DNA of 59,505 nt, the filler included, from Jimgerdemannia flammicorona (Eukaryota): NCBI GenBank assembly GCA_003990765.1. It is 2 parts of 2 records of this genome, joined end to end, with 100 filler letters (N's around TTAATTAATTAA, not from the genome) between each part and the next. Parts side by side here need not be neighbours in the genome. Positions count along the whole stretch, not along the records: positions 29,807 to 59,505 come from RBNJ01000475.1; 1 more part is not named here. One strand, given 5' to 3'. Position numbers and translations under genes: made by a program. Below the pieces are notes generated by a model, which saw only the letters and a list, made by a program, of their open reading frames with translations, had not been told where the DNA came from and did no database searches. Of this stretch, positions 590-59,471 are shown one piece after another. Position 1 is the first letter of the stretch. The number at the start of each line of letters is the position of its first letter.

Positions 590-2520
<1,931 letters not shown>

Positions 2521-22013: not shown

Positions 22014-22016
22014 AGT

Positions 22017-29806: not shown

Positions 29807-30958
29807 TAACTATATAATTAAAGATATAATTAATACTATTTTTAAATTTTAGATTTATATTTTAGTATTAATTAATATAGAGTTTTTAATAAGTTTATAA
29901 ATTATAAGAATTTTTTTAATCTTAAATTATATACTTAATATTTATAATTATAAGAAGTAATTTATATATAAAATTACTAATATATATATAATATAAAGTT
30001 AGTATTTTTAAATTTTTTTTTTTCTTAACTTTAAAATATAATAATATAATAAAAATATATCTAAATTTATTATTTTTATTATATTAAATTTATTTTAATA
30101 AATTAAATTCAATAAATTTAATTTGATTAAATTTATTAAAAGTATTAATAAAAATATTATATATATTGTCACATAGTAGTCACTGAGTCCTTCAAATATA
30201 TCAGATTCTCTTCAAGATATATCTCTTAGACTAACTCAAGTTTGTTATAAGTAAGTTCTTATTAGAGTACCTTCCTAAGGTCTTATAGTCCTCAAACTTC
30301 TTATCTTTAAACTATCTTGTTATCTCTTAGATTACTTACAAGGAAGTATGTATATTATACTAAGAGAAACTAACTTTATTTCAGAGGAAATAAGAGAGAT
30401 ATTTATAAAAAATATAATTCAATAGTTGCTAAGATATAAAGCTAAATATAAATTCTAATAACTAAAATAAAATGCCAGGACAGGAAAAACTACTAAGTTC
30501 CAGAGTTGGCACTGATAGTTATATAGGTTCAGAATGCTGGTATAATTCAGTATCATATCAGAATACTAGTGCTGGCATTATTTAGTATTATATCAAAATG
30601 CCAGTACTGAAACAATTCTATATTACCTCAGAATACCAGTACTGGTATTATTCAGTATAACCAAGGGACTTAGAACAGAATGTTCAAGATCATAAAACTT
30701 CATCATCAGAGGTCAGAATGTCTTCAAAGGAGATGAGGTCTACAAATTTATCATTGTCATGTATTTTGTATATATCACATGAGATGATATTATCACCAAT
30801 AACATCATCACATTTAGTGGCAGAGAAATTGGGGGCTCTCTAATCTATAAGGTTCTCTTCCACAAAATAGGGAACAAATGTGGGGTCTTAGAGAGGTCTA
30901 ATCTGGATGCTTGAGTCTCAGAATACTGAGATCAATCTTTACAGAAATTGATCTGAGT

Positions 30959-36815: not shown

Positions 36816-36841
<26 letters not shown>
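30959..36841 (+). mobile_element. Full-length L1/Tx1-like LINE (LINE-3), inserted in the A2 3' LTR
   Basis: TSD TTGATCTGAGT (30948-30958, 36842-36852), AATAAA at ~36790 and poly(A) at 36816-36840. The 5' end ACCTTTCACTAG...GACACAAGAC matches the LINE-1 5' end. ORF1 ends at 33070; ORF2 runs 33102-~36750. Confidence 0.95.
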
Positions 36842-36846
<5 letters not shown>

Positions 36847-39800
36847 CTGAGTTGTTCTGAAGAATAGAATGCTAGAAGTCTTCTACTTCATCACTATTGA
36901 GGGTGATAGTGGACTGGACTTCTGTGGCTACCCTGACTTCTAGTATATTGATATGGTGGGATGACAGGTCTCTGAAATCTGAGACTCTAATATACTCCAA
37001 GTTGGAGATCGATCATAGTGTATGCCTGAAGATCTGATAAATCTTCTTAGCTGTCCTTATTTCATATATATCTATAGGAGTGGCATCTTGTAGCTCTTGA
37101 GGGCTGACCTGTGGAAACTCCCAGCAGAGGAGATTTTCTATTTCATACTTCTGCTATATTTGGAGGTATTTGGTAGTAATGGTGATCCTTGTTTCCATTT
37201 CATGACAGTAGAGGATATAGTGATAAGGGTCACCAGTATCCAGATTGACACTAGGAGTTCTTCTTGAGTGGGTTCTCGTGGCTCTTCTGATATCTTAGAA
37301 CATCCTCTCTTCAACTGAGATATCTTGGTGGTTCCTTGACCTTGAGGTTTGATAAGTAGCAGGCATTTTGTTTGTGGTAAGTCTTTGAGCTATTTTGGGG
37401 TTTGGTGGGTCTTATTGGTTACTACTACTGTAGTTCTTTGATCCTTCTTTTATGTTTCTCAAGATACTATACTATGGTTACAATGACTCACAGTTGGTCA
37501 TCATTGCTCATCTTGTATGCCATATAATCTTCTTGTGCTCCAATCTGGTGGCTTGTAAGGAAAGACTGTCTCCTATGCTGATGTTATCATTCTGGGGTCA
37601 CCATTACATCTTCCTTCTGAATAAGGATCTTCTCGAGCATCCTTATTCATTGGTCTAGTCCTAAAAAATTTACTGATCCCATAATCTCTGGCAAGGGGTC
37701 AAAAAGTGGTGTTTATAGACTAGTGTCTTCTCTTTATATTTTGGCATGATGGTGGAGGGTCACTCTCTTCATATAGAACAAGAGTCTGATTCTGATCTTG
37801 ACCAATCAGTTGACAGTTCAAACTCCTCTGGCTTCAAAAGTCTCATAGATGAGTAGTTGCTAGTACCATATCTCTTAGAGAATAGTCCAGACAAATAGCC
37901 TGCTGGTCACAGGACATGCTGTTATAATTTGCAGACTAGAACCTTGCAGGTGGTCATTACATTTTACTTCTCTTATATAGATTCATGGTACTTCTTGAGT
38001 CTATTCTTATGTATCATAGTAGGCAGTATAGTCTCTGAGATTTTTCTAAGCCAGAAGGTAGTTTTCTTGATATCTTGCACATACATAAAAGAGTTCTTCC
38101 CATTTGGGTTTCAGTTTTTATAACCATGAGGCTTCTACTATATTTTGATATAGTAGGACTTTTTTTTCAATTTGGATGAGTTCTAGGGTCTTGGGATTCT
38201 TTTCTATATTCTTCTTTATCAGTGCTTATGACTTGATGATATAATCTTCAGCCTTCTTCCTGATTTTATGTAGTCTCCAGATTTCTGCATCAACCTATCT
38301 CTAGGTTAAGTCTAGATTTATGGCTGAGGTTTCATCAGAATCTTCTTTCCCAAAAAGCAGTTTCCTTGGGGTAAAGTGTGTGCACTATGACTATATATCT
38401 TGTAGAATAGAGGGAGCAGTTGGGAGATAGTTATCCCAATTCCCATATGTCTCTAAGATCTTTGCCAGGATGTTCTTGAGGGTCTTGTTGGTTCTCTCTG
38501 TCTGTCCATTTCCTTGAGGGTGGTATATGGTGGTCTTGATGTGCTGGATCTTGTATTTCTGATATATTATCTTATGGAATCTATTGACAAATTCTGTATT
38601 ATGGTCTGTTGTGATTTGCTTCAGTGTCTTGTAGTGGCAGATGATTTCTTGGTGCAGGAAGTTAGCTATAGAGAGAACATTGACTTCTTGTAATACTCCT
38701 GCCTCTATTTATTTGGTGAAGAGGTCTACAATAACTATAATATAGCAGTTTCCTGATAGTGTTACTGATAGTAACCCAATGATATCTATTGCAATGTGGT
38801 GGAAGGGGATAGGCTCAATTCTTGATGACTCAGGTACCTAGTCTTGCTGATCTTGTTTCTGTTTTTGGCACTTATCACACTCTTTAATAAATTGGTACAG
38901 GTCTTCTTCTATCTTGGGCCACCACATAGTTCTTCTTGCCTTATCATATGTATGTATTGGTTCCTCCTAAATGTCCTTACTCATATACTTTCTTCATTAC
39001 TTAATACTTCTTATATTTGGATATTACTAGCTTTTCTCCTTTTCTGAGTATAGTATTGTCTAGTTCAAACTATTTCCAAGTCTAGTTAATGATGGTGATT
39101 GTTCAGGGTTTGAGGTAGTTGGGCATCTTCCACTGTCTAAGATAGCTGATTAATCCATAGTATAGCTCCTTATTCATATTAAATAGTCTTGATGGGGGTG
39201 TTTCAGAGTGTTCTTGAGAGTGCATCAGCATTGGTATTGGTTCTTCCTAAGCAGTACTTAATAGTACAGCCATACTCTTGCAGTCTGTAGATCTATCTGA
39301 CATATATTTCTTTGGGGTTCAGAGTGTAGAATAGTCAGGCAAGAGCAGAATGGTCTGTTTGAATGATGAAGTATTTCTCAGCTAAGTAGTAGTGAAACTT
39401 GTCTACTGTCCAAACTACTGCTAAGCATTCAAGCTTGCATGACTCATAGTTCTATTCTACTCCACAAGTACCTTGGCTTACATAGGAGATGATATATTCA
39501 TATCCATCTTTCTTCTGAGCTAGGACTGCTCTAAGTCCTATAGCACTCGCATCTGTCTGCAGGATAAATTCTATGTTCCAATCTGATCTTCTGAGGATAG
39601 GTGCTTAGGTCAATCTGGTCTTGAGTTTATTGAAGGTTTCTTGGTACTCTTTGGTCTATTTGAATTTAGTTTTCTTCTTCAGTAGCTTATAGATAGGTAC
39701 TGCAATGTTGGAATATCCTTTAGTAAATCTTCTGTAGTAGCTGGTCAGTCCAAGGAAGGCATGGACTTCTGTGGTTATTCTGGGTCTTGGGTAGGCTGCA

Positions 39801-40630
39801 ACAGCCTCAATCTTTATGGGGTCTGTGTGGATTCTGATCTGGTTGATGAGATGTCCTAGGTAGGCAATTTCTTGAGCTACAAACTTACATTTCTTGGGCT
39901 TGATGAAAAGACCATGCTCCTTGAGCTTCTTGAGAGCTAGCTGTATATGATTGATATGTTCCCATATAGTATTACTGAAGATGATCACATAATCAATATA
40001 GATAAAGAGCCATTTTCCAATCTCATTGCTGAAGACTCTGTTCATCATTTACTAGAAGCTTGCTGGGGTATTGCATATTTCGAATGGCATTTGCAGATAG
40101 ATATAGGTGGTATCAGATGTGATGAAGACTGATTTCTCACTGGCATCTTGAGTAAGACCAATCTGATAGAAGCCTGAGAACAGATCCAAGATGGTGTAGT
40201 ATTTGGCTTTACTTCCAAGAGTGGTAAGAATTTCTTGAATATTTGACAAGGGCTGTCTATCTTTCTTAGTAATAGTATTGAGCTTCCTATAGTCAATGTA
40301 GAGTCTTAGTGTAAACTCTCCAGGCTTGCTTCCTTTCTTTGGGGCAAGGACAATGGGTGAAGCCCAGGGACTGATAGCTTGCTTGATGATTCTAGCTTCT
40401 TCTATTTCCTTAAGTTCTGCTTGCAGCCATTCTCTGTAGGCAGGTGGTATAGGTCTGGCTTTCTGGTAGATGGGCTTGGTATCACCAGTATCAACTTCAT
40501 GATAGTACTTGGGTTCTTGATTGTAGATAACTCTGAAGTCTGTAATAAGTACTCCTTCATTTTGGTACAGGATCTTGAGAAGTTATTCTTCCAGAGAAAA
40601 GTTTTCTCTAATAGTATATGTGAGCTTATT

Positions 40631-41401
40631 CTATTCCTTGTCTTTCTTGTGTTCAAGTTTGATAATCTTGATGGCAGCATAGACTCCTCTTCTAGTGGAT
40701 CCAAAGTCTTGTTCTCCTCTCTTGGTCTTGATAAGTTCAATGACTTCAATGATCTTGGGTTTTTTGATTTTATGGATCAGCATCTGGCCAATCCTATCAT
40801 GCTTCTTGACTTCAAATAGAGTGGTGGGGTTGTGATTTCTGACTATAAGGAAGATCTCACCAGTGTAATTAGGGTCAATTACTCTTCCTTCAACTGAGAT
40901 TTCACTTTTGGCCAGACTGCTCCTGGTCTTGATAATTCTAGTATAGTTTTCTGGTAACTTGACTTCGATTTCAGTACCAAGTAGGGTAGTGGTCTGTGGT
41001 TTGAGGATAGTATCTTGAATGCTGGCAAGGTCCATTTCTATAGCTCCTTCAGTCTTGTATTCTGGGATCTTGGCTTTGGGGTGAAACTTCTTGACCTTAA
41101 GAGTAATGTCTGATTCTTGTTCCTCCTCATTATCACTATTAGCCTGAAGCTCTGGGGGCTGGTCATCTTCTTTGGCTTTCCTTTTTACTTCAGTAGCTTC
41201 TTGCTCATGTTTCTGTTGGTAGATTTTCCTGACTTTACTAATACAGGACCAGCAGTCATTCAGGTGTTCAGAGCAGTACATCCTAGTACCATGGGGGCAT
41301 CTTTCTTGAGAGGCATAGCCATCAATGATCTTATTGTACCACTGCTCATCTGTGAGCTTGGGTGTCTTGTTCTTGTTCTTATTCTTATTCACTAAGTACA
41401 T
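40631..41401 (-). pseudogene. A2 Cys/His module plus dUTPase (continuous 256-aa frame)
   Basis: RCPHGTRMYCSEHLNDCWSC followed by MDLAS, RSSLA, VIDPNYTG and RGEQDFGST. Confidence 0.9.
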
Positions 41402-42862
41402 GAAGACCTCTGTATTCTCTTCATCTCCTTCCTCTATATCTAGTAGAACTCCTTTGTGGACATTGATAGAGACTCATACCTTTCTTCCTCTATAGTTGAT
41501 CTGCATCTTCTGGGCATTGAGGTCAATGATGGCCTTGGCCTTGTAAAGCTATTGGTTGCTAATGAGGATATCATAGTTGGTGGCACTTGTAACAATCACA
41601 TCTACTGGGATAGTAGCTCCTCCTATCTTGATGGGGACTTCTTGGATTTTGCTAAAGGGGGTAGCTTGTGTACCATCTACTATAACATAGACTATCTTGG
41701 TGGACTCTTCAATGTCCCAGCCTAGGTGGTCAATTGCCTTCTTGCTCATGAGGCATCCTCCAGCACTAGTATCAATGATGGCATCAAAGATATAGTCTTC
41801 AATCTGACATGGGATATAGGCTGATGTCTTGCACTAGTCTTCAGATTCTTCACCTGAGTTTTTAGATTCTTTCTGTGCATTGTGAGCTTCTACAATCTTG
41901 TACTCTTAATTCTTGGCAGTAGTTGCAAGTCCTACTCTCAACTGCTATCTGAAGGCAGAGACTTTAGCTAGCTATCCAAAAGTAGTATTGATCTTCTGTT
42001 CCTTGAGGTCCTTGTAGATATCATACTGATGGATCTTGGTCTTGCACAGCTTCTATTTCTTCTTACTTTCACTTTCTCCTGAGACTGGAGTAGTACCTTC
42101 AATGATTTGACAGGCAGCTTCATCTAACTCCATATTTTGATCAATCTCCTTGGGTTGAGTCTTACTTTGAATAGTGACAGCTGGGGTTTTCTTTGGTCTT
42201 CCAACTGGCTTATTGTTGCTCTTCTTGTCATAGGGCTTGGACTGGGTTTTGGTATCTTTAATAGTAGGGTAGAATTTAAGCTCCTTGTAGTATTCTTCAT
42301 CATCAGTATCACCAATCTCCTCAATGACTACTGTATTGGTTTGTTCTCTGATTCTGCTAGTATTGCTTGGTTGGACTTTATGTCTTGTTTAAGTCATGCA
42401 ATTCTTTGCATAGTGGCCTTTTTCTCTATATCTGAAGTATATAATATTGTATTCTTCTGTAGTAGCTGCAAATCTCTACACTAGTCTCCTGTTGGTACTT
42501 TGGACTTCTCTAACAATATCTCCAAGGTGTGCAGTTATCTTGGCAAACTGCTTGGTAAGTTCCTCCACTGGGTTAGCTTTGGCTGCCTTAGGGGTAGGTG
42601 GGGTTGGTTGTCTATTTACAACTATGGCGGATATGATATTAGTTGGCTTTGATGACTCTATCTTGATGTCAGTTATTTTCTCCATTGAGTGTTCAGCAGA
42701 GTGTCTGGCAGTCCAACATCTCTGTGCAAAGACCACTTTCTGATCAAGGGTCAGTACAGCTGGGGTAGATCAGATTACTAGGGCAATTTTAGAGTGAACT
42801 CCTTTGAGGAAGATTGAATCTGCTATTTGTTCCTTGAGGGTATCATCATAGCTAGTTAAGAC

Positions 42863-43286
42863 TAGTGCTCCCAAACGAGTCGAATCAATTCGAATTGAAT
42901 CGAATTGAGGGTTAAACAAGTCAAATCGAATTGGGGATTTTTCAATTTGAATCAATTTAAATTGAATCAAAAGTTGAATTGAATTGAGGGTCTGATTCGA
43001 ACCCTAATTTTCAAAATGCAATAACTCAGCGTAAACTCATCCAAATCTAACGTACTTTAGCTTGTTAGAATTACATTAATATGGTAAATCTAACAAGCTA
43101 AAATATGTTAAATTTGGATGAGTTTTCGTCAAGTTATTACATTTTGAAAATTAAGGTTTGAATCAAACTTCAAATTGAATTGGACCTTTGATTCAATTCA
43201 AATCGAATTGAATTGGACCCTTGATTCAATTGAATCGAATCGAGTTTGGGCCAAATTCGATTCGATTCGATTCATTGGGAGTACTA
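42863..43286. mobile_element. hAT-type MITE copy 1 (424 bp)
   Basis: TIR TAGTGCTCCCAA/TTGGGAGTACTA, 8-bp TSD GTTAAGAC, empty site in A1 (~21550). Confidence 0.93.
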
Positions 43287-43516: not shown

Positions 43517-43869
43517 TAGTGCTCTTAAACGAGTTGAATCAATTCGAATCGAATCGAATTAAGGGTTAAACGAGTTGAATCAAATTGGGGATTTTTCAAT
43601 TTGAATCAATTTGAATTGAATCAAAAGTTGAATTGAATTGAGGGTCTGATTCGAACCCTAATTTTCAAAATGCAATAACTCATCCAAATCTAACGTACTT
43701 TAGCTTATTAGAATCACATTAATACGGTGAATCTAACAAGCTAAAATATATTAAATTTGGATGAGGTTTCACTGAGTTATTACATTTTGAAAATTAAGGT
43801 TCGAATCAAACTTCGAATTGAATTGAGTTTGGGCCAAATTCAATTTGATTTGATTCATTGGGAGTACTA
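43517..43869. mobile_element. hAT-type MITE copy 2 (353 bp, internal deletions)
   Basis: Same TIR, 8-bp TSD AGAAGAGC, empty site in A1 (~21772). Confidence 0.92.
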
Positions 43870-44114
43870 AGAAGAGCCAATTATGCATCCACACCAAGGG
43901 CTCATATGACAGCAAATTATTCAAAGTCTTCAATGAAGGTCAGAATTGACTCTTCAGTTATATATCCATAGAATGTATGGGGGATGCATTTCTATCTTAT
44001 CTTGAATTCTTACAGGGGTGACTCTTGTAGTCAAGGTAGTTGTTGTGGGGTTATTCATTTTTTAGCTTGAAAGTGAGGGATTCATCTTAAATCACCAGCC
44101 AATGGGTACCAAGT

Positions 44115-45663
44115 TATCACATAGTGGTCACTGAGTCCTTTAAATATACCAGATTCTCTTCAAGATATATCTCTTAGACTAACTTAAGTTTGTTATAAGT
44201 AAGTTCTTATTAGAGTGCCTTTCTAAGGTCTTATAGTTCTTAAACTTCTTATCTTTAAACTGTCTTGTTATCTCTTAGATTGCTTGCAAGAAAGTGTGTG
44301 TATTATACTGAGAGGAACTGACTTTATTTCAGAGGAAATAAGAGAGATATTTATACAAAATATAATTCAATGGTTGCTAAGATATAAAGCTAAATATAAA
44401 TTCCAATAACTAAAATAAAATGCCAGAACAGGAAAAACTGCTAAGTTCCAGGGTCAGCACTGATGGTTGTATAGGTTCAGAATACTGGTATAATTCAGTA
44501 TCATATCAGAATACTAGTGCTGGTATTATTCAGTATTACATCAAAATGCCAGTGCTAGAACAATTCCATGTCACCTCAGAATGCCAGTGCTGGTATTATT
44601 CAGTATAACCAAGGGACTTAGAACAGAATGTTTAAGACCATAAGAACTTTATTATTAGAGATCAGAATGTTTTTGAAGGAGATAAGATCTGTGAATTCAT
44701 CATTGTTGTACGTTTCACATATGTTGCACAGGATGACATCATCACCAATGATGTCATCATATTTGGTGGTAGAGAAATTGGGGGCTCTTCAATCTATGAG
44801 GTTCTCTTTCACAAAATAAAGAATAAATGTGAGATCTTGGGGAGATCTAACCTAGATGCTTGGACCTTAGAATACTGAGATCAATTCTTACTGGAATTGA
44901 TCTGAGTTGTCCTGGAGAATGAGATGCCAGAAGTCTTCTACTTCATCACTATTGAGGATAATAGTGGACTGGACTTCTGTGGCCATCCTGACTTCTAGTA
45001 CATTGATATGGCAGAATGACAGATCTCTGAAATCTGAGACTCTAACATACTCCAAGTTGGAGATTGACCATAGTACATGTCTGAAGATCTGATGGATCTT
45101 CTTAGCTGTCTTTGTTTCATATATATTTATGAGAGTGGCATCTTGTAGCTCTTGAGAGCTGGTCTGTGGAAACTCCTAGCAGAGAATATTTCCTATTTCA
45201 TACTCCTACCACATTTGGAGGTATTTGGTAGCAATAGTGATCCTTATTTCCATTTCACAGCAGTAGAGGATATAGTGATAAGGGTTACCAGTACCCAGGT
45301 TGATACTAGGAGTTCTTCTTGAGTAGGTCCTTATAGCTCTTCTGATGTCTTGGAACATCCTCTCTTCAACTGAGATACCTTAGTGATTCCTTGATCTTGA
45401 GGTTTGGCAAGCAGTAGGTATTTTGTTTATAGTAAGTCTTTGAGCTATTTTGGAATTTGGTGGGTCTTATTGGTTGTTGCTACTGTGGTTCCTTGATTCT
45501 TCTTTTATATTTCTCAAGATACTATACTGTGGTCACAATGACTCACAGTTGGTCATCATTGCTCATCTTATATACTGTATAATCTTCTTGTACTCCAATC
45601 TGATGGCTTGCAAGGAAAGACTGTCTTCTATGCTGATGTCATTATTCTGGGGTCACTATTATA
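44115..45663 (-). repeat. 5' LTR of A2
   Basis: Decayed TG...CA termini; shares a ~22-bp insertion (TAAAATGCCAG...) with the 30167 LTR that the A1 LTRs lack. Confidence 0.9.
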
Positions 45664-45894
45664 ATATATAAATATAGAAAATTATTAATTTTTTATTAAA
45701 ATATAAATAAATAAATATAATTTTCTCTCCCATATTAAATATTATTATAATATTATTATATTAAGTAAAATTAATTATAAGTATTATTAAAATAAATATT
45801 ACATACTAAAAATATTTAAAATAAAAAAATAATTTTATTTATAAGAATAATAATAGTAATAGTAATAATAGTAATAATAATATATTATTAATAT

Positions 45895-48800
45895 TGTAAT
45901 GGTTCTAGTTTCTTTAAGAGGAAGTGGCTAAATTTGAAAGTTCTAGTTGGCCTAAAGTAGCTTAAAGAGATACTTAAAGGTTTAAGTATTCTCAAAGAAT
46001 TTCTGGGAGAAAATATTCTGAACTTTATTCAGGTAGAGAACAAGAATATTTATATATAATCTGAAAGAAAGATCTGAAAGGATCTTGGAAAGAAAGAGAA
46101 ATGCCAAGAAATAGATTCTCAGCAAAGCTGACTAATACTATTCTATAATATTCCAAAAGGTTCTATGATTAGCTGAGATAAGATACTTGGTGCCAAGGAA
46201 AGACAAAAATGTTCTAGTAGTGTCTGGATGCTAAGAGAAGGTTTCTAAGCAAGTAGAAGGTACTAGAACATAATAGAATATTCAAGAAATGACAAGAAAA
46301 GACTGACTAAAAGGTGCAAAAAATATACTAAAACTAAATATGACTGTAAAATTATTACATCCCTCCTTTCTTAAGAACTAATGTCCTCATTGAGTTCTTA
46401 GGTAACACAAGACTAGATATACTTAACCAAAATTTCTCAAACTTGAATTAGTACATTGGCAGAGATTGGCTATCCTTGTATAGAGCAGAGGGCCTATTAC
46501 TAGACTAACTAACTGGGAGAGATTCAAATCTAACTAGTAGCTTTATTTCAGTAGACTTCTTGTTCATTAAATATTCTGCTGGTTCCAGGGTCCCAAAGTA
46601 AACTTCCAATATATAAGGCACTGGTCATTGCTATAGATTGTTAACAATCCAAGAAAGTCACTATAGAGATTGGGTAATGTATTTTGCCTCAAAGTCTTGA
46701 ACTAGATCTTGAGAGTTCTTGAGGTTGATCAGTGGTTCCCAGGTAGCATAATATTCAGGATATCCCATCTACTTGACTAGGTATTCAGGATAGTGATAGC
46801 AGATTCATTTGTCAAGAATTTTCTCAGCTTTATACTCAATATGGTCTTCAATAATCACAGAGGTAGAAGGCTTAGAAATTTGACCAGAGTAGAGTGATAA
46901 CTGGTTCCAGGTCTTGAGGTGTGATATATGAAAGACTGGGTGTACTCTCATAATTTCAGATAGCTTGAGACAGTAGGAGAATACAGAGACTTGTTCAGTA
47001 ATCTCGAAAGATCTGATATACTTGGATTGGAACTTGTTCAAAGGGTGGTTGACTTGAGATTGTATCTTGAGATTCTTGGTAGACAGTAGGACTTAATCTC
47101 TAATAGTATAAGTGATATTATGGCATTTCTTATCAGTATACTTAGCTTGATGCTGTTGAGCCTTCTGAAGGTTTATGGTAGCAATCTTAAGTAATTCATC
47201 CATTTTGTCTATAAGGTTCTTAGTGGTTGGGACTTGTATTTAATTGATTTTCTTGAAAGAGAATAGACTTGCAGAGGTCTCAGGATCTTGACCATGGAGT
47301 AATCAGAAAGGGAAAAGACCAGTAGATTATTGGACAGTATTGTTGTATATAAACTCTGCATAAGTCAGATAGATGTCTCAATCATCTTGCTTATAAGAAA
47401 TATAGTTTCTAAGTATTTATTCTAGAGTTCTGTTCATGTACTCAATTTGTCTATTGGTTTGTGGATGAAAGGCAGTAGACATAGCCAATTGGGTTTCCAG
47501 AGTCTTAAAGAGGGTTTACCAGAAGTGGCTGGTGAACTTGGGGTCATGATCACTAACAATTACTCATAGTAGACCATAGTGATGAAAGATGGACTTGAAG
47601 AAGATTCTTGCAATCTTGGGTGCAATAGCATTGGTAGTAGTTGGTTCAGCAACTATAGTCTTGATCAAGTGGTCAATGAATATAACAATAGTATCAGTAC
47701 CAGATTGAGTTCATAGTAGTTAAGTTATAAAGTCTATGATAACTTACTTGAACTTCTTGGTAGAAATTAGCAGTAGTTGTAGCAAACCAGTGGGTACTTG
47801 GTTGGTAGACTTATTGTGCTGACATAGATCATAGCTAGCAATATAGTTCTTGATTTCCTTGACTATGTTTGGCCAATAGTAGTGGTATTAGATGTTCTTG
47901 ATAGTCTTCTCAATTCTCAGATGACCAGCAAGAGAGAAGTTATGGTGTTCTTGCAAAATCTTATAGTGTAGATTTATGTTTTCAGGTAGGTAGACTTGGT
48001 CTTGATAATAGATCAGATTATTCTTGACAGTATATATATCCTTGAGTTCATTTGAGAAAACTCTAGAGGCAACTGTGTCTTCTTTATTAGCTTGCCTGAT
48101 TTGGTCTAAGAATTCTGATATCAAAGTGACTTGCATGATTGTAGCAAGATCTGGATACCTTGATAAGGCATCTAGTACTACAAGTATCTTGCCAGACTTG
48201 TAGATGATTGTCAGATTGAAGGTTTGAAGCTTGAGGCTCTATTTGGCTTATAGATATAACAGAGTAGATTGGGTGTTGATGTACTTGAGAGATTGATAAT
48301 CAGTAATGACATCAAACTCAACACCTTTTAGATAGCATTACTAGTGATCTAGTATATATATTATTGCTAGTAGTTCCTTCTTATGAGTAGCTAGCTTTTG
48401 TTCAGCTGAGACTAGCTTGTGGGACTCAAAAGCAATAGAGTGATATCCTTTGCTATCATTTTATAACAGAACTACTCCAATGGCAAAATTTGACATATCA
48501 GTAGTGACTATGAATTTTAGGTCTTGATCTGCATTATGCAGAACTGGGGCATGGGTCAGACAGTTCTTGAGTTCTTGAAAGATTTGTTGACAGAAGAGAT
48601 CCCAGGTATAGGATACATAGTGGTCTGAGTGTGGGGCCTTCCTCATGAGGTTAGTCAGTGGCTCAGCAATGCCAGAGAAGTTTCTGATAAAGTGGCAGTA
48701 ATAGTCAGCTAGACCAAGGAAGGATCAGAGTTCTGTAAGATTTAACAGAATGGGCTATTCTTCAATTGCTTCTATCTTATATAGGTCTATTTGAATTCCT

Positions 48801-49730
48801 TATATAGAGACAATATGGTCAAGGTATTCAACTTATTCCTTGAAGAATTCACACTTCTTGAGCTTAGCATAAAGCTTATATTTTCTCAGAATCTCTAGGA
48901 CTATTTGAATATGTTTGAGGTATTCTTCTTTAGTTGCACTAAAGATCAGGATGTCATCAAGATATATCAATAAAAAAATAAATAGTTGGTTTTTGAATAT
49001 CTTATTCATCAGAGTCTGAAATGTGGCAGGTGTATTAGTGAGACCAAATACTAAGACTAGAAATTCATAGAGTCTAAAGGGGGTCATAAATATAGTCTTG
49101 GGAATGTCTTCTGGCTTGATTCAGATCTGGTGGTATCCTGATATGAGATCTAACTTAGTGAAGTACTTGGCATTCTTGAGAGTATCAAATATTTGATCAA
49201 TTAAGAGTAATGGATAGTGATTCTTGACAGTGAGTTTGTTGAGTATATGGTAGTCTATATATATTTACAGGATATCATCCTTCTTCTTGATGAATAAGAC
49301 TGGTGAGCCATAAGGAGATTTGCTTGACTGGATGGCTCTTTGTGTAAGTAGTTTTTCTAGTTCCTTCTTGACTGTTTCAATTTCAAGTAATGATATATAG
49401 TATATATATTTCTTGGATGGTATAGCTTCTGGGGTCAGTTCAATTTTATGATCAACTTCTCATATAGGTGGTAGACCAGGTAGCTTATCTGAAAAGACAT
49501 CCTTGAATTCCTCTAGCAATAGTTTGATGCTTTTATTGACTAATAGTCTCTTGTCTTATTTCTTAGGGCAGATCATTACAATAAAGGTATATGTTGTCTT
49601 CTTGAGTGCTTTCTTATACTATATAGCTAACAGTGTTGCAATCTGAGTCTTACTCATGATCTTATTTGTCTTAATTATAATATTGACTCCATCTTGAAGT
49701 AGAGTGACTTCATTCTTACATCAATCAATA
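45895..49730 (-). mobile_element. Chromovirus (Ty3/Gypsy) family C, 3' part: RT-RH-IN-chromodomain and 3' LTR; interrupted by family B
   Basis: LTR 45895-46359 (TGTAAT...ATTACA) plus PPT. YLDDILIFS at ~48950; HPVFHISHLK; chromodomain remnant EYKAEKILD..EYLVK..GY..ATWEP at ~46710-46850. Confidence 0.9.
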
Positions 49731-51802
49731 TGTAAGAGGGTTGCCTTTTTAGAATAACTGTTACATAGTTCTGAAAGGGTTTTCTGGAAGTTCTGAATAT
49801 TCTGAAAGACTGTTTTCTTAAGGTCAAGATCAATTTCATATGGAGTATGTCCTCTATGCTTATTGATTTTAAGATCAGATTGATATCTCAACCAAAGTTC
49901 TTTTTCAGACTAATTCTAGATGTTCAGGATTTTCTGTATTTCAGGAAGTTTAAGAAACTAAGACTAGCTTAGTTGAATTGGCATATTACTATAGACAATA
50001 CCTAATTAGGAAATTTTGTAACAGGGTTAGAAGTGAGACTTAACAGGGAGCAGATTTACTTAAGAGTAGTTTGTGGGTTATTAAATAGATTTATTTGCTA
50101 TTCATAATATTACTATACTAAGAGTAGTTGTATAAAGAGATATTGTGGGGAAGTGCTCAGGAGTTGTATTCAGATTGTTCAGGTCTGTTTGAGTCTGAGA
50201 TTCTGAGGTCTGGGAGAGAGGGTATTTATACTAGTGAGGGGCTATCTAGACTATGCTAGATATGGATGTAGCACTTAGTACCTTACTGAGTCAGAATACA
50301 GTTATGTAATATAAGTGTGATCTGATATATCAAGAGATTTTCTGACTGCTGAGTCAGTTCACAGTCATATTGTACAAGGCTAATCTAACTATACTATGAC
50401 TGCTTATTTATAGGTTTAGACATTGTCTGGATAGTCTTTGATAACATCACTATTGATAACATCATCTCTGATAAAGTAGTCATCTAGGAAGAGTAGTTTA
50501 TGGATTACTTCTCCTTGTTCACTGAGGTAATAATATATTGAGACTTCATCACTGTCCCACAAGATAGCATCATCTGTCTCATATACTGGATAAGGCATTG
50601 GTGGATAAAGGAGGAGTACATTGTCTTCACTTTTATCAGATTCACTGTCTGCATATCTTCTATAAGTTACAGCACTATAAGTTGTGGAGTTGTAATAAGC
50701 TGGTAGCTATAGTTCATATCACTTGTACTCAGGTGGTGAAGTGGTTGGTTCAATCTCAAAGATTGTCTGAAGATACAGGTTGTATTCTCTGGTCTCTTCA
50801 TTGTAGTTGAAGTAATCAGGTGTGAACACCAGTTGATATTCATACTAGTGGTCATTGTCCCAATAGATCTTGTAGGTGGTTATGAACTATTTTAAGTTTA
50901 TTGACAAGGTTGGCAGAGTGATCAGGGTTGGCAGAGATTCTTGGCTAGAGGTTATGTCAGCATCAGAGAGATCATTGTCTTCTGCTTTGTCTTCATCAAA
51001 CTAAATTATATTATAGATATCCTTCATGGCATATCCAACTTGGGGCATTTGTAAAATATGATTATCAAAGTGTGGGAAGGTTCTGTCTGTAGTCTGGATA
51101 TATTCAAGGTACTTATAGTTTAGTTCTTGTATCATATCATCGATTTGACCATAGGATAGGGTAGTAACCATTTTAGCAGTAGTAACTCAGAGACAGAGAA
51201 TAAAGGTGCTGTACTTGTAGAAGAGTTCTTGGTGTTTGCAAGCAATAAGTTTCTGGTGTTGAGATATCTGGATAATATCTATATTATGGTAGTATTTGAC
51301 TATGTCTTCGAAGAGGCAGTCAATCTGGTAGTAGTTTAAGATTTGTCCAATTTAGTGGGCCTCACTAAGCATGTTCAGGGCATTCCATCAGGCTTCCATG
51401 AAGTAAAAGAGTACTAGACTATAGATATTCATAAGGGGCAGAGAGAGTGTAGCTCGGTTGACAATAGCATTTCAAATATCAGTGCAGATGCAGTTGTAGA
51501 TCTCAGTGGTTATATTTGTATATATTTAGAAGTTATAGTGTTGTTTGTTTTGGTTCTCTGTTTCGATGTATCTTAGTGCTCAGTATATATGCATTTGGTC
51601 CTGATTGGTAAGATTCTGTTTGTATAGATCTTGTGTTCTGTGACTTCATATTGACTCAGCTTTGTATGCTGTGACTTCAGTTTGACTCAGCTTCATGATT
51701 GAGCAGGTAATTTCCAGATTTGTTTGGAGGTTGTATGTGATTTCAGTGGCTTGTTCAGAGGGTGATGTGTGATTTCAGTGGCTTGGAGGTTGTGCACTTA
51801 CA
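49731..51802 (-). repeat. 3' LTR of B (~2.07 kb)
   Basis: TGTAAG...CTTACA followed by ACTCTCCCCTTCTT (PPT complement). Confidence 0.92.
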
Positions 51803-54800
51803 ACTCTCCCCTTCTTAGCTTTCGATGTCCTCATTGGGACCTTCTAATTTGTTCTAGTGTTGTTATACCATTTGGGAGGTCAAAAGTCCAGTAAAGTCCA
51901 TTTTTCTCAGAAAGTGGTATACTCATAGTATAGTTGCCTAATGTGTTGGATTTATATATTAAAGGGTTGTATGTTCAATACTATACACCAGAAGTGATTC
52001 TGATGTCATTCACTACTGGAGAATTTCCTCTAAAAAATCTTCTTAAATATCTATGTCTCATTTTTCACTAGTGGTACAGAGAGAATAGGCTTGCTTTCAG
52101 TTTTGCTGTTTTTTCACAGGGTCAGTATTCTTTTGTCTTGACTTGCTGAGTTCTTGATTTTATTCATGATAATTATAATATTTGGGAGGGTAATATATAG
52201 TATATACTGATAGGTGTAGAGTATTTGGTTTTAGTTGTTTAAGAAATTATATTCCTGAACTAAGTCAGTAGCATTCTGAAGGTTGGTCTTAGGTTTCTAT
52301 GTTGCATCATGGATCAGGTAACCTTTCTATTTGACAAGGTACTCAGGATAGTTCTTGTGTCCATATTTGTTGAGGATTTGTTCAACTTTATACTCTTCTT
52401 AATCATTAATAATAATAGGTGCAGGTAGTTCCATAGTTTGGTTTGGGAATAGCTCATCATCATTCTCATTGTATCACTTGAGATATTGAATATTGAAGAC
52501 TGAGTAAATCTTAATGGTGTCTGGTAGCATCAATTTATAGGAGGTTGGGAAGACTTGAGAGATGACTTCAAATGGTCCAATAAACTTGCTGTTCAGTTTT
52601 GTGGATGGTCTATGCTTGAGGTTGTCAACTTGGTATCCTCAGATATTCAATAGAACCTTTTCTCTGATATCAAAGGTTTCTCAGTAGTGTTGGTTAATAT
52701 ACTGTGACTGTTGTTCTTGAGCTTATGATAAATTCTCGATTGCAATCTGACTTAGATTACACATTCAGAGTAGAAATTCTTCAACAGCTTCAACTGTAGA
52801 GGGTTCATCAGTGGTTCAGATAAGTGTCAGAGGAGTGTTTGGGTTTTGTCTAGTATTGGCAAAGAATGGGGTCATTCTCAGAGAGGCTTACTTACTGTTG
52901 TTATAGGTAAATTTGACTGTAGTAAGGTATTTATGCCAATCATCTTGTCTATAGGAAATATAGTTCCTTAGTATTTATTTCAGAGTTCAGTTTATCCTTT
53001 CAGTTTGGTCATCAGTTTCAGGGTGAAATGCTGTAGATAGTACAAGTTTTGTTCCAAGGTATGCATAGAGGGCTTTCCAAAAATGGCTGGTAAATTTTGG
53101 GTCTCAGTCACTAATAATGATCTTAAGAAGACCATAATAGTGAAAGATATTGTCAAATAAGAGTATAGCTATGTCTGGTGCTGTTGCAGTAGTAGTAGTT
53201 AGCACAAAGTAGGCCTGTTTGCTGAGATAGTCCATGAAGACAACAATTGCATCTTTCCCATTTTTGGTTCAGGGTAGTTGTATAATAAAGTCCATAGAGA
53301 TTTATTTCTAATTATTGGATGGTACTGGAATAGGGTAGAGTAGGTCAGGTTTTGCTAGTGTTGAGGACTTGTTATATTGGCAGGCATCACAGGAAGTGAT
53401 ATAGGTCTTTAGCTGATCTGCCATGTGGGGCCAATAGAAGTTTTGGGAGATAACTTTATAGTATTTGTCAAATCCTAAATATCCAGCTGTAGGGACATTA
53501 TGACATTCAAATAGGATAGTTCTTCAGAGGTCTCCGTTGTTTGGAACATACAATCTGTTCTTATAGTAGATAGTATTGTCCTTCAGTTGATATTGATGGT
53601 ATTGGGTATACTTGTTAGTATCATCACTGTTTAGGATTTCTCAGAGTACTTGAGCTTCTTTATCATCAGTACATACTGTGATAATTTGTTCCATGATAGA
53701 GTTTGTAACCAGAGTGAGGGTTTGGATAACTTCTTTGATTAGTGGTCTGGAGATTGCATCAGCAATAATATTCTCCTTACTAGGGTGATACTGAATTTCA
53801 TAGTCAAAGTTAGTAAGGACTTTCATCCATCTGGCTTGCTTTCAAGAAAGGGTAGCCTGTGTCTTGATATTGACTAATGACTTGTGGTCAGTCAATATGG
53901 TGAAGTGTGCTCCTTCTAGGTATGGTCACTATTTGATCAGAGTATCTATGATGGCTAAAATTTCCTTCTTATGAGTTGTATAGTTGATTTCAGTATCATT
54001 GAACTTCTGAGAGTAATAGGCCACAGGGTGTCCTTCTTGTATGAGTACTGCTCCAAGAGCTAGGTCAGAGGCATCAGTAGTAACTTCATATAGTAGAGCA
54101 GGGTTTGCCACTTGAAGTACTGGAGTAGTTATCAATGCATTCTTCAGTACTTGAAAGGCTGTATCTTGTTCAGGTCTCCAATTTACAAGATTGTGGAAAT
54201 CTTTCTCTTATTTCATGGTCCAGGACTATTCTTCTTTCTTACTATACTTAGTTATTTGGGTGAGAGCAGTAGCAATTTTGGCAAAGTTGGCAACAAATCA
54301 CCTGTAATAATTTACTAATCTCAGGAATAACTGGAGGTCTTTCAGCTTCTTGGGTCTGGGTCAGTCCTTGATTGTGGAGATTTTGCTGGGGTCTACTTTG
54401 ATCCTATTGGGTGTGACAGTGTGTCCAAGGAATTGTATTTCCTTCAGGAGGAATTCACACTTGCTGAGTTTTACAAAGAGTTAGTTTTTTTAGAGTTTTA
54501 GTAGTATTAGTTCAAGGTATTCAAGGTGTTCTTCCAGAGTTTTGCTGAAGACTAGGATGTCATCAATGTAGATAACTACAAATTTGTCCAGGTATGGGTG
54601 CAAGATAGTATTCATCAGAGTCTGGAAGGTTGCAGGAGTATTAGTTAAGCTAAAGGGTATAACCAGAAATTTGAAATGTCTATAACAAGTTTGGAAGGCT
54701 GTCTTGTAGATGTCTTCTTCTTTCATGGCAATTTGCCAGTAGCTATTTTGCAGGTCAAAAGAGCTCATGAATTGTGAGTTGGTAAGCCTGTCGAAGATTT

Positions 54801-55849
54801 TATCAATTCTGGGTAGTGGGTAATAGTTTTTGATAGTCTGTTCATTGAGGTCTCAGTAATCAATATACATTTGTAGGTCTCCTCCTTTCTTGACAATAAA
54901 GAGGACTGGTGCACCATAGGGTGATATACTAGATCTGATGAATCCTTGTTCTAGAAGTTTGTCAATTTCTTTCTTGAGTACATCAATTTCTCTTAGTAAT
55001 ATGTGGTAGATTGACTTGAAGGCTGGCTTAGCATCTGGAATAGTCTTGATGGTATGGTCTACTGCTTATTTAGAAGGTAGATCTTTTGGAAGTTTCTTTG
55101 AGAATATGTCTCAAAATTGCTGTCTACTTTAGAAAAGTCTTCTTCAGAGTTCTCAGATTCTCCTTTGAATGGGCAGATGGAGATGGCAAAGAGAGAGCAT
55201 TTCTTGGCTAATTTCTTGAGTTATAGCTTATTGATATGAGTGATCTTTGGTCCAGAGTCACTAGAGTTGAGTGGGTCCTTTTTATCTTATAATTTGAAAT
55301 TGTGGTGTTCTTTCTTGATAGTCAGAGAATGGTTTACCCAATCGATCATGGAGTTCTCTTGTTTCAACCATGGGGTTCCAAGGATGATTTCATTATCAGA
55401 GAGTGGTATAATTTGGAGGGTAATATATACTCAGTAGTCACCAATTTGGAAGGATAAGTTGTAGACTTTCTTGCTGATAACATATGAGGTTCCATCAGCT
55501 GTGGCAACTGCTTGAGTTTGTTGTACTGGAGAAGTAAAGACCTTGAGTCTGTTGACTGTTTCTTCATTGATGAAGTTGCCTGAGGCACCACTGTCTATTA
55601 TAATCTTGACAGGTGCTCAGTTGACAAAAGCTTGAAGTGTAAGCAGTTTGTCTACTCTAATGGTAATAATTTCAGTTATAGGAGCTTTTCTTCTGTTGAT
55701 TCTTCTTATTGACATAAGAGAAGCAATCATCAATTATTTGAGAAGAGTACATTCCAATATCATGGGGGCATCAGCCACTAGGTACATATCTATCTTCAAT
55801 TTTCTTATAGAATTGTTCTTCTTTGCTCATGGTAGATTGGACTGGGGCC

Positions 55850-56255
55850 TTGTTTGATGAGCCAAATCCTTTGAATTCTTAGATGGTAGGTAGTAGTTCA
55901 GGAACTTCCTTGACTGTCATAGTTGACTTGATTTTCTCAAATAGGATCTGGGCAATGCAGAAACCTATGGGAATCTTGAAGAGTATCTAACTATGGTTTC
56001 GGATGAGAATGATAATTTTTCCTATATAATCTTTGTCAATGACTCCTCCTTCTATTGAGAGTTCTTTCAGTACTAGGCTGCTGTGACAGTATATTCTTCC
56101 AATATATCCTTCAGGGATTTGGATGCTAATTCCTGTATAGACTTGCTTGACTTCTCAGTTAGAAACTGTAGCTTCTTCGACTGTATACAGGTCATATCCA
56201 GCTGTCTTTTGACTTCCTTTGGTTGGAGCTTTAGCAGTTTGTCTTAACTTGACAA
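55850..56255 (-). pseudogene. dUTPase domain of B, between the Gag zinc knuckle and protease
   Basis: AGYDLY, HSSLV, GGVIDKDYIG, IAQIL, KGFGSS. Confidence 0.88.
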
Positions 56256-57737
56256 AGTCCAGTATTCTGGTAGTCAAGTTATTGAGGTGGTGCAGAGTAG
56301 TAACAGTTGCTTGTATTGCTGTTTGGGGTTTTTGGTTGGGACAGGCACTGGCCATGTGTCCTGTCTTTCAGCAATAGAAGCATGCTTTGCTTCTTCGAAG
56401 TTCATTTCTTTCTTCTTCAGTGAGTTTCTTAAAGGTACTCAGCTGGGTGGATTCATGATTTCTAGATATCCATAAGGCAGATGTTGAGGGAGCTCAGAAT
56501 GCTTCATGCTTGGGTTCTTCTTTTTTGGTCCAAGTTTTTTCCTTGTTGTTGAATTGTCTTTGAGACAGAAGTGGTCCAGCTATTAGGATTTGCTTAACCA
56601 TGGTCTTGATTCTTGCTAGGCACCATTGCTGATAGTCACAACCAACTGGGCAGCCTTGTTCTCAGATTTTTCTGGTAAGCCATTCAGGTAGTGCATCAAA
56701 TAGATGGTCTGCTCTTGTACTATTTTGTGCTTTGTCATTAACAATGTATCCTAGGCCAACAGTGTTCAGGAGTGACTCAAGTTTTGTACAGAAGGTTTCA
56801 AATTCTTCTTTACCATATATATCAAATTTGAGGTTGTAGAGTTTTACTCAAGATTTGGTAATTATGGTTTCACTGTGGTATTGAGCAATCATAAGTTGTT
56901 TCAGTCCAGGGACTGCAGGATGGGCTCCATATTCTGGGGCATTGTTTGCTGCATTTTGAGCAACTACTGCAGATTGGATATCCCATGTAAGAGGTTTTTC
57001 AGAAAGGGTTTGTCACCATTCTTCAGCAGGTCCTTAGAAGAATGTAACAATTTAGCAGACATAGGCTATAGTAGTAGCAAAGAGTTGTTCCAGAGTGTGG
57101 TCTTGATTGTTTGTCAGAAGGTGGTCAGCTATTTACTCATTGGTCCATTGATTGGCTTCAAAGTTGGTATCAACTATACTAATGAAGCTTTGGACTTCTT
57201 GTGTAATACTAGTGAAGGTAGGTAGACTCAGATTTTTGATAGATCAGGTCTGTTCAGCTAAGGCAGTAATGGTTGTTACCATTATTGCTATCTGGGCTGT
57301 GAGATCTAGAATCTATTGGTTCGCTATATTGTTTACTAGAGATGGTTGGACTACTGGTAGTAGTATTACTAGTACTACTTGAGATACTGGTACAGAGTGT
57401 GATAGAGTTCTTTGAGTCTGTGTAAGTTGCTGGAATAATAGTTGTGGGTCTAGAGTAAGAACTCAATAGATAGCTGTTTATTGCTGTGTCAGTATATTTT
57501 GTCCTGATGGAGGTGCATCTCCTTTGGTGATATATCTGAGATCGAATTCACTGAGATACTCCTCCTCCTCTTCAGTTTGGTCTCTGTGTAATTGGGTTTG
57601 CTCAATATCAAAGTAAACAGAATCAGTTATATATCTGATTTCAGATGGACTTAATTTAAAGTCAAGTTCTGGTTCAGTATTGATTTCAGATTTAGGTAGA
57701 ACTGTAGCAGGACCTACTTCTGGTTCAGGGTCAGGTA

Positions 57738-58161
57738 TAGTGCTCCCAATGAATTGAATTGAATTAAATTTGTCCCAAACTTGATTTGATTTGATTGAAT
57801 CAAAGGTTCAATTTGATTTGATTTGAATCAAATCAAAGGTCCAATTCGATTTAAAGTTCAATTTGAACCTTAATTTTCAAAATATAATAACTCAACGAAA
57901 ACTCATCTAAATTTAACATATTTTAGCTTGTTAGATTCACCATATTAATGTGATTCTAACAAGCTAAAGTACGTTAGATTTGGATGAGTTTATGCTGAGT
58001 TATTGCATTTTGAAAATTAGGGTTCAAATTAGACCCTCAATTCAATTCAACTTTTGATTTGATTCGAATTGATTTGAATTGAAAAATCCCCAATTCAATT
58101 CGACTCATTTAACCCTCAATTCGATTTGATTCGAATTGATTTAACTCATTTGGGAGCACTA
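57738..58161. mobile_element. hAT-type MITE copy 3 (424 bp, opposite orientation)
   Basis: TIR TAGTGCTCCCAA/TTGGGAGCACTA and 8-bp TSD GTCAGGTA. Confidence 0.93.
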
Positions 58162-58721
58162 GTCAGGTAGTTGATAAAGGGTTTCTCTTGCTTCTTCTTT
58201 AAAAATATAGTGGGTCTTGCTGTCCTGGAATTGGTAGTATAATGCGGTCTTGGTCCTGGTACAGTGAAAGTCAGTAGAGTTGAGTCACTTAGCTACAGAG
58301 GCTTGGGCTTTATGAGGAACTAAGACTAGAAAGACTGCTGCTGGTTGTTCTAGGTTACTTGGATTTGTAGAGCTGATAAAACTCTTGTTAAGAAGAGTAA
58401 AGAAGGCTTCTATAAGACCTTCTTCATCTTGACTTGCTAGATATAGAGCAAGGAGTTCAGTGAATAGAGTTTCACCTATTTGCTAATTTAATTGAAGTAC
58501 TTCTTTCTTTGAGTGAAGTTTGTTCTACTTGTTGCAGGTGTGGAGGTCAAATTGTCCTTGTATGTCAGGTTCAATTCTCTTTAGATTGTCAGATGGTTCA
58601 GGATAAATTCCAGTTCAGAGGTTAGATCTTATACCAACTTGTAGGAATTCTCAGAGGGGTTTGTAACAGGGTGAGAAAGCATCTTGAAGCAGAATTGGAT
58701 TGTAAATCACTGCTACCAAGT

Positions 58722-59471
58722 TATAAGAGGGTTGCTTTTTTAGGGTAACCATTACATAGTTCTGGAAGGGTTTTCTGGAAGTTCTAGATATTCTGGAAGA
58801 CTGTTTTCTTAAAGTCAAGATCAATTTCATATAGAGTACATTCTCTATGCTTATTGATTTTGAGATTAGGTTGATATCTCAACCAAAGTCCTTTTTCAGA
58901 CTAGTTCTAGATGTTCAGGATTTTCTGTATTTCCAAAAGTTCAAGAAACTAAGACCAGCTTAGTTGAATTAGTGTATTGCTGCAGACAATACCAAATTAG
59001 GAAATTTCGTGATGGGGTTAAGAGTGGGACCTAATGGGGAGCAGATTTACTTAAGGGTGGTTTGTGAGTTATTAAATATATTTATTTACTATTCATAATA
59101 TTACTATACTAGAAGTAGTTATATAAAGGGATATTGTGGGGAAGTGCTCAGAAGTTGTGTTCAGATTGTTCAGATTTGTTTGAGTCTGAGATTCTGAGGT
59201 CTAGGGGAGGGGGTATTTATATTAGTGAGGGGCTATCTGGACTATACTAGATATAGATATAGCACTTAGTACCTTGCTGAGTCAGAATGCAGTCATATAA
59301 TACAAGTGTGATCTGATATATCAAGAGATTGTCTGACTACTAAGTCAGTTCACAGTCATGTCATACAAGGCTAATTTAACTATACTATAACTGCTTATTT
59401 ATAGGTTTAGATACTGTCTGGGTAGTCTTTGATGATATCACCATTGATGACATCATCTCTGATGAAGTAGT

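Follow-up and report, generated by a model that had tools for sequence, protein, structure and literature searches.

The 59,505-nt stretch of the Jimgerdemannia flammicorona genome considered here (assembly GCA_003990765.1; two parts joined with filler N's, positions 29,807-59,505 representing RBNJ01000475.1), referred to in its entire length as the window, carries fungal genes at its left end and, from about 9 kb rightward, decayed retroelements nested one in another. Amongst these are two families of Ty3/Gypsy long terminal repeat (LTR) retrotransposons, family A with the copies A1 and A2 and family B with one copy, all three elements lying on the minus strand, and both families combine a dUTPase with a short Cys/His module. 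In both copies of family A the order is Gag knuckle, aspartic protease (PR), Cys/His module, dUTPase, reverse transcriptase (RT), RNase H, integrase (IN) and a GPF region, and in family B it is Gag CCHC knuckle, dUTPase, Cys/His module, PR, RT, RNase H, IN, SH3 domain and chromodomain. The order from PR to RT in A and from the Gag knuckle to PR in B had been proposed in an earlier note on the same DNA; the orders are confirmed by Pfam matches, by a profile of the module and by the translations. The elements are composed as follows, E values referring to Pfam or to the hidden Markov model (HMM) of the module:

22016-23352, minus strand: A1, 5' LTR (repeat families D1-D5 and D8)
21093-21134, minus strand: A1, Gag knuckle, YFRCRKEGHYAKNC, the first Cys apparently mutated
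20171-20746, minus strand: A1, protease with DTGA (gag-asp_proteas 2.5e-11, RVP_2 6.2e-8)
19889-20059, minus strand: A1, Cys/His module (module HMM E 6.6e-30), with CPHGTRMYCSEHLNDCWFC at 19943-19999
19391-19777, minus strand: A1, dUTPase (PF00692 E 4.2e-26, 91.7 bits), residues 43-171 of the open reading frame (ORF) 18833-19903
18750-19097 and 12566-12931, minus strand: A1, RT, interrupted by a nested insertion at about 13000-18700
12128-12382, minus strand: A1, RNase H
11329-11769, minus strand: A1, integrase
10855-11325, minus strand: A1, C-terminal GPF region, without chromodomain
9044-10353, minus strand: A1, 3' LTR (direct-repeat analysis)
44114-45479, minus strand: A2, LTR (direct-repeat analysis)
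41552-41833, minus strand: A2, protease (Asp_protease_2 4.7e-7)
41189-41359, minus strand: A2, Cys/His module (module HMM E 1.8e-29)
40694-41077, minus strand: A2, dUTPase (PF00692 E 1e-22, 80.7 bits)
39659-40582, minus strand: A2, RT (RVT_1 matches)
30166-30958 and 36726-37424, minus strand: A2, LTR split by an insertion (direct-repeat analysis)
58717-59369, minus strand: B, 5' LTR with approximate ends (direct repeats D6/D9, 87-89% identical to 49726-50378)
56341-56382, minus strand: B, Gag CCHC zinc knuckle, CFYC*KTGHMASAC, with one internal stop
55846-56262, minus strand: B, dUTPase (PF00692 E 5.5e-28, 97.8 bits, three in-frame stops read as X)
55687-55827, minus strand: B, Cys/His module (module HMM E 2e-19, 58 bits)
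55290-55616, minus strand: B, aspartic protease with DSGA (gag-asp_proteas 2.2e-7 on 55434-55616)
52246-55065, minus strand: B, RT, RNase H, integrase, SH3 domain and chromodomain (RVT_1 5.6e-20, RT_RNaseH_2 3.3e-26, Integrase_H2C2 1.9e-16)
49726-50378, minus strand: B, 3' LTR with approximate ends (direct repeats D6/D9)

Both families show the Pfam order PR-RT-RNase H-IN on the minus strand between paired LTRs, as befits the Ty3/Gypsy class, and the RT of P0001, an intact relative of family A amongst public metagenome proteins (P numbers throughout), matches the Ty3 RT 4ol8 (E 6.6e-25). When the module profile, which was built from metagenome sequences only, is run on the six-frame translation of the window, it returns exactly three matches (E 6.6e-30, 1.8e-29 and 2e-19), each at the site expected for one of the three elements; therefore the positions and domain orders given in the earlier note are right, far beyond what chance would provide. 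The span 55715-56255, which had been singled out in family B, corresponds to the dUTPase together with the core of the module.

All three dUTPases of the window pass the Pfam gathering score of PF00692, which the intact relatives reach with 100-114 bits, and the dUTPase of B is 42.6% identical to that of P0009 (E 1e-26). Trimeric dUTPases have five conserved motifs, including the Asp of motif 3 and a C-terminal GFGST arm. In P0001, P0015, P0009 and P0003 these read AGYDL or VGMDL, RSS, G(V/T)IDxDYTGE, (R/K)I(A/G)Q and GFGST, and the intact relatives are thus predicted to encode dUTPases of the trimeric type with the conserved motifs kept.

Family B is a chromovirus, with the chromodomain at the integrase C-terminus: on P0020 a match to SH3_Tf2-1 (1e-13) is followed by one to the chromodomain PF00385 (E 3.8e-6, 27.1 bits at a cut-off of 25.1). 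In the C-terminal ORF of A1 (10855-11325), on the other hand, no Chromo match is found at E up to 0.1; given that the A1 copy is decayed, an ancestral chromodomain may have been lost from family A.

All window copies are dead. A1 and A2 have a few in-frame stops each, and in A2 the module and the dUTPase still share a single open frame of 280 aa (40634-41473). In family B the stretch from the knuckle to PR contains six stops and one frameshift, the latter near 55700, ahead of PR, as inferred against its intact relative P0018. The core of the B module, CPH..C..Y at 55714-55770, reads C-P-H-x12-C-x2-Y, its last Cys being mutated, and is preceded by one stop, while the module of P0018 is GRCPHGIGMYSSRMIDDCFSC. 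At the place of the B Gag knuckle the intact relatives P0015 and P0003 show C-x2-C-x4-H-x4-C. The LTR pairs differ by 120 mismatches in 1302 bases in A1 (9.2%) and by 75 mismatches in 668 aligned bases in B (11.2%). A1 and A2 differ by 301 transitions and 19 transversions in 3090 aligned bases, the ratios of transitions to transversions being 301:19 for these internal regions and 335:15 for the LTR pairs. Such near-pure transitions are the signature of deamination-type decay of repeats, and the bias is consistent with deamination or with mutation resembling repeat-induced point mutation in this genome. A1 (about 20168-20170) and A2 (about 41474-41476) are both interrupted in frame at one and the same codon (RGRKV*VSINV), where P0001 has Arg; this stop was either inherited from a common ancestor that was already defective or arose through a C-to-T change that recurred at one site.

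The Gag of B-type elements carries, besides the knuckle, a second conserved motif, G-C-P-H-x2-W-C, which is reminiscent of the start of the module and can be found at 56620-56643 in the window (mutated, GCDYQQWC), at about residues 159-166 of P0015 and in the matching stretch of the P0003 Gag. The similarity of this motif to the module is not significant (E about 1).

The module itself comprises about 50 aa with the putative ligands C-x-H-x12-C-x2-C, four positions which are kept in nearly all 20 aligned copies. The consensus of these copies is E-x-[WF]-Y-x2-[IL]-x-[DE]-G-[YF]-x-P-x-G-[RK]-C-P-H-G-x2-M-Y-x7-C-x2-C, behind which lies a stretch rich in Lys and Arg. Of the roughly 45 residues of the module, 8 are invariant across 11 B-type sequences, a degree of conservation similar to that of the dUTPase half. 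As to its relationship with known families, no Pfam family reaches its cut-off on the module, and the matches below threshold are scattered, several of them being to zinc-binding families: amongst 11 aligned modules seven families were matched, each by at most two sequences and none at cut-off, DUF1451 being matched by 2 of the 11. A near-match of A2 to zf-C5HC2 (20.2 bits, cut-off 22) was repeated neither in A1 nor in the 11 aligned modules and was discarded. The zf-CCHC family PF00098 does not match the module sequences either, the spacing of which differs from C-x2-C-x4-H-x4-C.

Beyond this genome, the distribution of the module in public sequences links it closely to the dUTPase. A phmmer search with the 87-aa module ORF of A1 against 1.84 billion representative proteins gave 12 matches, 11 of which are real (P0008 is a spurious repeat protein), with six of the matches in B order and P0002 in A order, and a search with the module profile gave 14 matches, 12 of the 13 strong ones carrying PF00692. 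Taken together, both searches yielded 18 module-bearing proteins, all of them metagenome fragments. Thirteen of the 18 also contain a dUTPase, in A order in P0001 and P0002 and in B order in P0003, P0004, P0005, P0009, P0010 and P0013-P0018. Three others (P0006, P0011 and P0012) are too short to be judged in this respect, and the remaining two (P0007 and the weak match P0019) lack a dUTPase within their length. A CCHC motif lies upstream of the B-order dUTPase in P0003, P0009 and P0015, and PR lies downstream of the B-order module in P0009, P0010, P0013, P0015 and P0018, so that CCHC, dUTPase and PR are found within one ORF in P0015 and P0009. In P0001 and P0018, intact relatives of A and B, respectively, one uninterrupted reading frame encodes PR, module, dUTPase and RT, arranged as in the family concerned. 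Wherever a fragment includes PR, the module is flanked by dUTPase and PR, and this holds for both families; the public protein sets yielded no element that combines the module with PR or RT yet lacks a dUTPase.

Scans of DNA with the module added little to this picture. In metagenome contigs only two short loci were found, L002, which is B-type, and L001, where the module lies in a decayed frame of 373 aa without dUTPase, PR or RT; P0006 and P0007 resemble the latter. No locus was found in IMG/VR, none of 15 pattern matches in prokaryote genomes proved to be a module locus, the Protein Atlas gave no usable match, and an initial protein search returned nothing for the 'near' length class and a single match for the 'longer' one. 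One soil-metagenome DNA sequencing run contained a fraction of 0.09 of the searched words; no RNA run was listed. The link between dUTPase and module hence appears strong but not absolute, and an occurrence of the module independently of the dUTPase, which the earlier note would count against its own reading, is seen in part, namely in L001 and P0007 and weakly in P0019. In L001 (positions 2-1120) a repeated GW..D..G..W motif matches the Pfam family SCNM1_acidic above its cut-off (4.9e-8), and a WCxCxEC motif is shared with P0007; a further stretch may resemble a fungal Zn2Cys6 cluster.

With an alignment of 11 sequences as input, AlphaFold predicts for the module alone a fold with a mean predicted local distance difference test (pLDDT) score of 90.2 in the best model, consisting of a helix, a hairpin bearing C-P-H, and two further helices, first a short one and then a long one beginning at C-x2-C. 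The same secondary structure of the module recurs in a model of dUTPase plus module, where the linker is disordered and the predicted template modelling score is 0.42, which suggests separate domains on a flexible tether and not one packed unit. A predicted complex of the dUTPase trimer with the module scored 0.00 in a run made without alignments or controls. Given the ligands C-x-H-x12-C-x2-C, the module most likely represents a single-zinc knuckle, with the four predicted ligands placed around one zinc. That the region might instead be a conserved linker or protease-processing region with an incidental Cys/His pattern, and no folded functional domain at all, would agree with its lack of a Pfam family and with the lack of a solved counterpart, as the best Foldseek match in the PDB has an E of 1.2 and the best Z in a VIA-align comparison with 48,161 chains is 4.1, small domains often failing in such searches. 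The constant position next to PR and the loss of the middle Cys and His from many B-type modules (A and some of the B type have them) point in the same direction. However, conservation of the ligands and of several positions with aromatic residues or Pro/Gly extends across lineages at 32-60% overall identity, the fold is predicted with confidence and recurs in both of the contexts modelled, and in L001 the module occurs in a different protein context, all of which make a mere linker improbable.

As a small, basic and flexibly tethered Cys/His domain, the module is best read as an adaptor that would keep the dUTPase attached to nucleic acid or within the particle. The dUTPase would lower dUTP at the site of reverse transcription and so keep uracil out of the cDNA, and the knuckle of the module would tether it to nucleic acid or to the particle. 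In family A, where PR separates the nucleocapsid (NC) part of Gag from the dUTPase, a separate knuckle for the enzyme would be plausible, and in family B the dUTPase would have a knuckle on each side.

With respect to their backbones, A and B are distant lineages, as claimed before: with stops read as X, the protein identity between them is 32% in RT-RNase H (460 aa), 27-30% in integrase and 28% in PR, so that their RTs are no close relatives, and a chromodomain is present in B only. The dUTPases are 32% identical and the modules 44-47% (blastp, 39-47 aa, window copies), and when P0001 is compared with P0018, as intact representatives of the A type and the B type, the identity is 36% in RT, 42% in the dUTPase half and 42.6% over 54 aa in the module. 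In view of the blastp identities and of the HMM match of the B copy (E 2e-19), the modules of A and B can be regarded as homologous. Over all, the unit has diverged about as far as the RT (dUTPase 32-42%, module 43-47%, RT 32-36% identity).

This bears directly on the suggestion that the unit was recently passed between the co-resident families, e.g., by template switching of co-packaged RNAs. Both A and B do carry the unit within one window of 59 kb, and in an early tree the dUTPase of A joined the window copy of B with a support of 90/82. However, blastn detects no nucleotide similarity between A and B save for a foldback repeat (up to 89% identity), and none in the dUTPase-module unit; the divergence of the unit equals that of the RT, and the order of dUTPase and module differs between the two. 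The early pairing was moreover a long-branch effect, which vanished after P0018 and the module columns had been added. A recent exchange is therefore highly improbable, and of the accessory unit proposed in the earlier note the linkage of dUTPase and module is upheld well beyond this genome (13 of 18 proteins, in both orders), while an exchange of the pair between the window copies of A and B is not supported.

In the later tree, the window copy of B and P0018 group with 100/100 and join other B-type sequences, and A is placed weakly beside the B-type P0003 (82/84). The dUTPases of A and B together lie on one side of a branch that separates them from viral dUTPases, with a support of 80/84 with 30 outgroups and of 90/92 with 12 outgroups and the module columns added. 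In approximately unbiased (AU) tests, B-type monophyly is not rejected (p 0.17 and 0.24), and the trees therefore cannot say whether A nests inside B. The reading favoured here, with a probability of roughly 0.6, is that the pair of dUTPase and module had one ancient origin in fungal Gypsy elements and was subsequently subject to an old move or rearrangement. The second backbone would have gained the pair long ago, either by recombination or by descent with rearrangement, with at least one extra rearrangement on the way.

A number of observations weigh against this reading. The trees contain A-type, B-type and viral dUTPases and no cellular fungal ones and, apart from the module, the putative common origin of the dUTPases depends on a branch with moderate support. 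The dUTPase of the B-type P0009 is 42-51% identical to stand-alone viral dUTPases, and the dUTPases of A and B are with 36-42% no more similar to each other. PR-module-dUTPase is the mirror image of dUTPase-module-PR and not a cyclic shift of it, and a single block move or duplication is therefore insufficient. The module without a dUTPase in L001, in P0007 and in P0019, the decay of the window copies, which have stops, a frameshift in B and LTR pairs diverged by 9-11%, and the lower confidence of the other AlphaFold predictions for the module alone (four of five, with mean pLDDT values of 61-77) have to be added, and the zinc binding, nucleic-acid binding and dUTPase activity on which the adaptor model draws are predicted properties. 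Finally, fungal elements have been described as having acquired their dUTPases independently (PMC2864245; here and below, papers are cited for the parts of their text that were available).

Several of these points would equally suit an independent capture, in which A and B each took a dUTPase from the host or from different donors, next to a module that was older or separately mobile and stood beside PR: besides the published independent acquisitions, these are the low identity between the A and B dUTPases relative to the viral ones, the occurrences of the module on its own, and the mirrored order, which requires separate insertions in any case. On the other hand, 13 of the 18 module proteins have a dUTPase and only two are long enough to be judged as lacking one, the dUTPases of A and B group together against the viral outgroups (80/84 and 90/92), and a module accompanied by PR or RT but not by the enzyme was not found in the public protein sets. 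Independent capture, the main alternative, is accordingly considered rather unlikely, and a single ancient origin of the pair is preferred. A more far-reaching version of the latter, put forward tentatively and with clearly less confidence, is that the module constitutes an undescribed zinc-binding family which would be a dedicated, co-evolved partner of the dUTPase in fungal retrotransposons, tethering the enzyme from its place between PR and dUTPase, and that the pair would have moved as a cassette between chromoviral and non-chromoviral Gypsy elements. If true, this would be the retrotransposon counterpart of the betaretroviral NC-dUTPase fusion, achieved via a different domain.

Parts of this architecture are known. 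In co-resident Gypsy families of one basidiomycete, three sites of the dUTPase have been reported, namely N-terminal in Pol, in the interval from PR to RT, and C-terminal in Pol after IN (PMC2864245). Fungal Gypsy or chromovirus elements with a dUTPase comprise PosPlaTy3-3, -4 and -5 of Postia placenta, elements of Phanerochaete chrysosporium and Tmt1 of Tuber. The Pol N-terminal position resembles that in family B and the one between PR and RT that in family A. Family A differs in having no chromodomain. The function of the dUTPase is given as unknown there. The text cited from that paper describes no Cys/His module, and the zinc motifs in its figure legends are the Gag CCHC and the integrase HHCC, the supplementary tables lying outside this comparison. 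As variable positions were thus reported before, the presence of one enzyme at different sites in co-resident families is already known, and the proviso of the earlier note that the architecture might have been catalogued applies to this extent.

A pairing of the dUTPase with a small zinc motif inside Pol is also found in animals. In the rotifer LTR retrotransposons Juno, Vesta and TelKA the dUTPase lies between PR and RT, and Juno has an additional zinc knuckle behind it (PMC5408684). By description, the only basis of the comparison, the Juno knuckle is placed on the RT side of the dUTPase and not between PR and dUTPase.

In betaretroviruses the dUTPase lies in front of PR, in the order NC, dUTPase, PR (PMC2238898, the GyDB paper), and in Mason-Pfizer monkey virus it is fused to the zinc-knuckle NC, the NC domains adopting the trimeric symmetry of the dUTPase upon binding of oligonucleotides (PMC1802613). 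The likeness of family B to this arrangement, remarked upon in the earlier note, is borne out in that its dUTPase is preceded by the Gag knuckle and followed by PR; the resemblance concerns the layout alone and implies no membership in the Retroviridae. In betaretroviruses the knuckles are those of the Gag NC upstream of the dUTPase, whereas the fungal elements have a second, unrelated C-x-H...C-x2-C domain, downstream of the dUTPase in B and upstream of it in A, and unlike betaretroviruses A and B are fungal LTR retrotransposons in which no env is seen. With zf-CCHC (PF00098) the module has in common that it is a short Cys/His motif within a retroelement polyprotein, the predicted hairpin bearing the first two ligands. 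It differs in the spacing C-x-H-x12-C-x2-C, in its flanking helices and in reaching no Pfam zinc-finger cut-off.

A description of the module was not found in the literature on retrotransposon and fungal dUTPases or in Pfam, a search that left aside the entries of Repbase, Dfam and GyDB and the supplements of PMC2864245. The new part is thus the conserved Cys/His module beside the dUTPase, which may be regarded as a real but modestly novel variant of a known architecture, and prior annotation is possible. As the variability of the dUTPase position has been published and the window copies are dead, the direct biological weight of the locus is small. It is, however, only partly understood why retroelements carry a dUTPase and how the enzyme is held at reverse transcription, and the presence of a small conserved Cys/His domain alongside the enzyme in two fungal Gypsy lineages that are distant from each other suggests tethering as a general requirement, which retroviruses and rotifer elements seem to meet by other means. 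In addition, the module can serve as a simple marker at the sequence level when modular exchange amongst fungal retrotransposons is to be traced.

The surroundings of the elements comprise two genes at the left end of the window:

593-2559, minus strand: protein kinase, in four ORF pieces with introns probably between them
4878-5930, minus strand: cell-wall glucanase of the Tos1/YJL171C type, an intact ORF of 351 aa, with similar proteins in the Protein Atlas mostly from basidiomycetes, no more than a hint at a basidiomycete-like host

The window also holds a third family of repeats, the RT of which is non-LTR-like. It is found at about 13000-18700 (minus strand), nested within A1, at 23352-26883 (plus strand), beside the 5' LTR of A1, and at 30958-36726 (plus strand), where it splits one LTR of A2. 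The translation of 25127-26554 contains a FADD motif, and the coding strand of this family has 36-38% G and 13-15% C, with a GC skew of up to 0.5. The foldback repeat mentioned above, which is MITE-like (miniature inverted-repeat transposable element), measures about 277 nt, with arms of 134 nt that are about 80% complementary and a loop of 9 nt; it is absent from A1 and lies at 57807-58083 in the gag region of B and at 42943-43215 and 43597-43824 in A2. Between A2 and B, positions 45480-49726 hold a chromovirus-like element which is truncated at its 5' end and retains RT, RNase H, IN and SH3; its proteins are 42% identical to those of B over 969 aa. The 182 nt of 45480-45661, which adjoin the A LTR, share 91% identity with the internal region of A2 at its 3' end (37425-37606), which suggests an LTR-internal-LTR-internal array or a recombinant junction.

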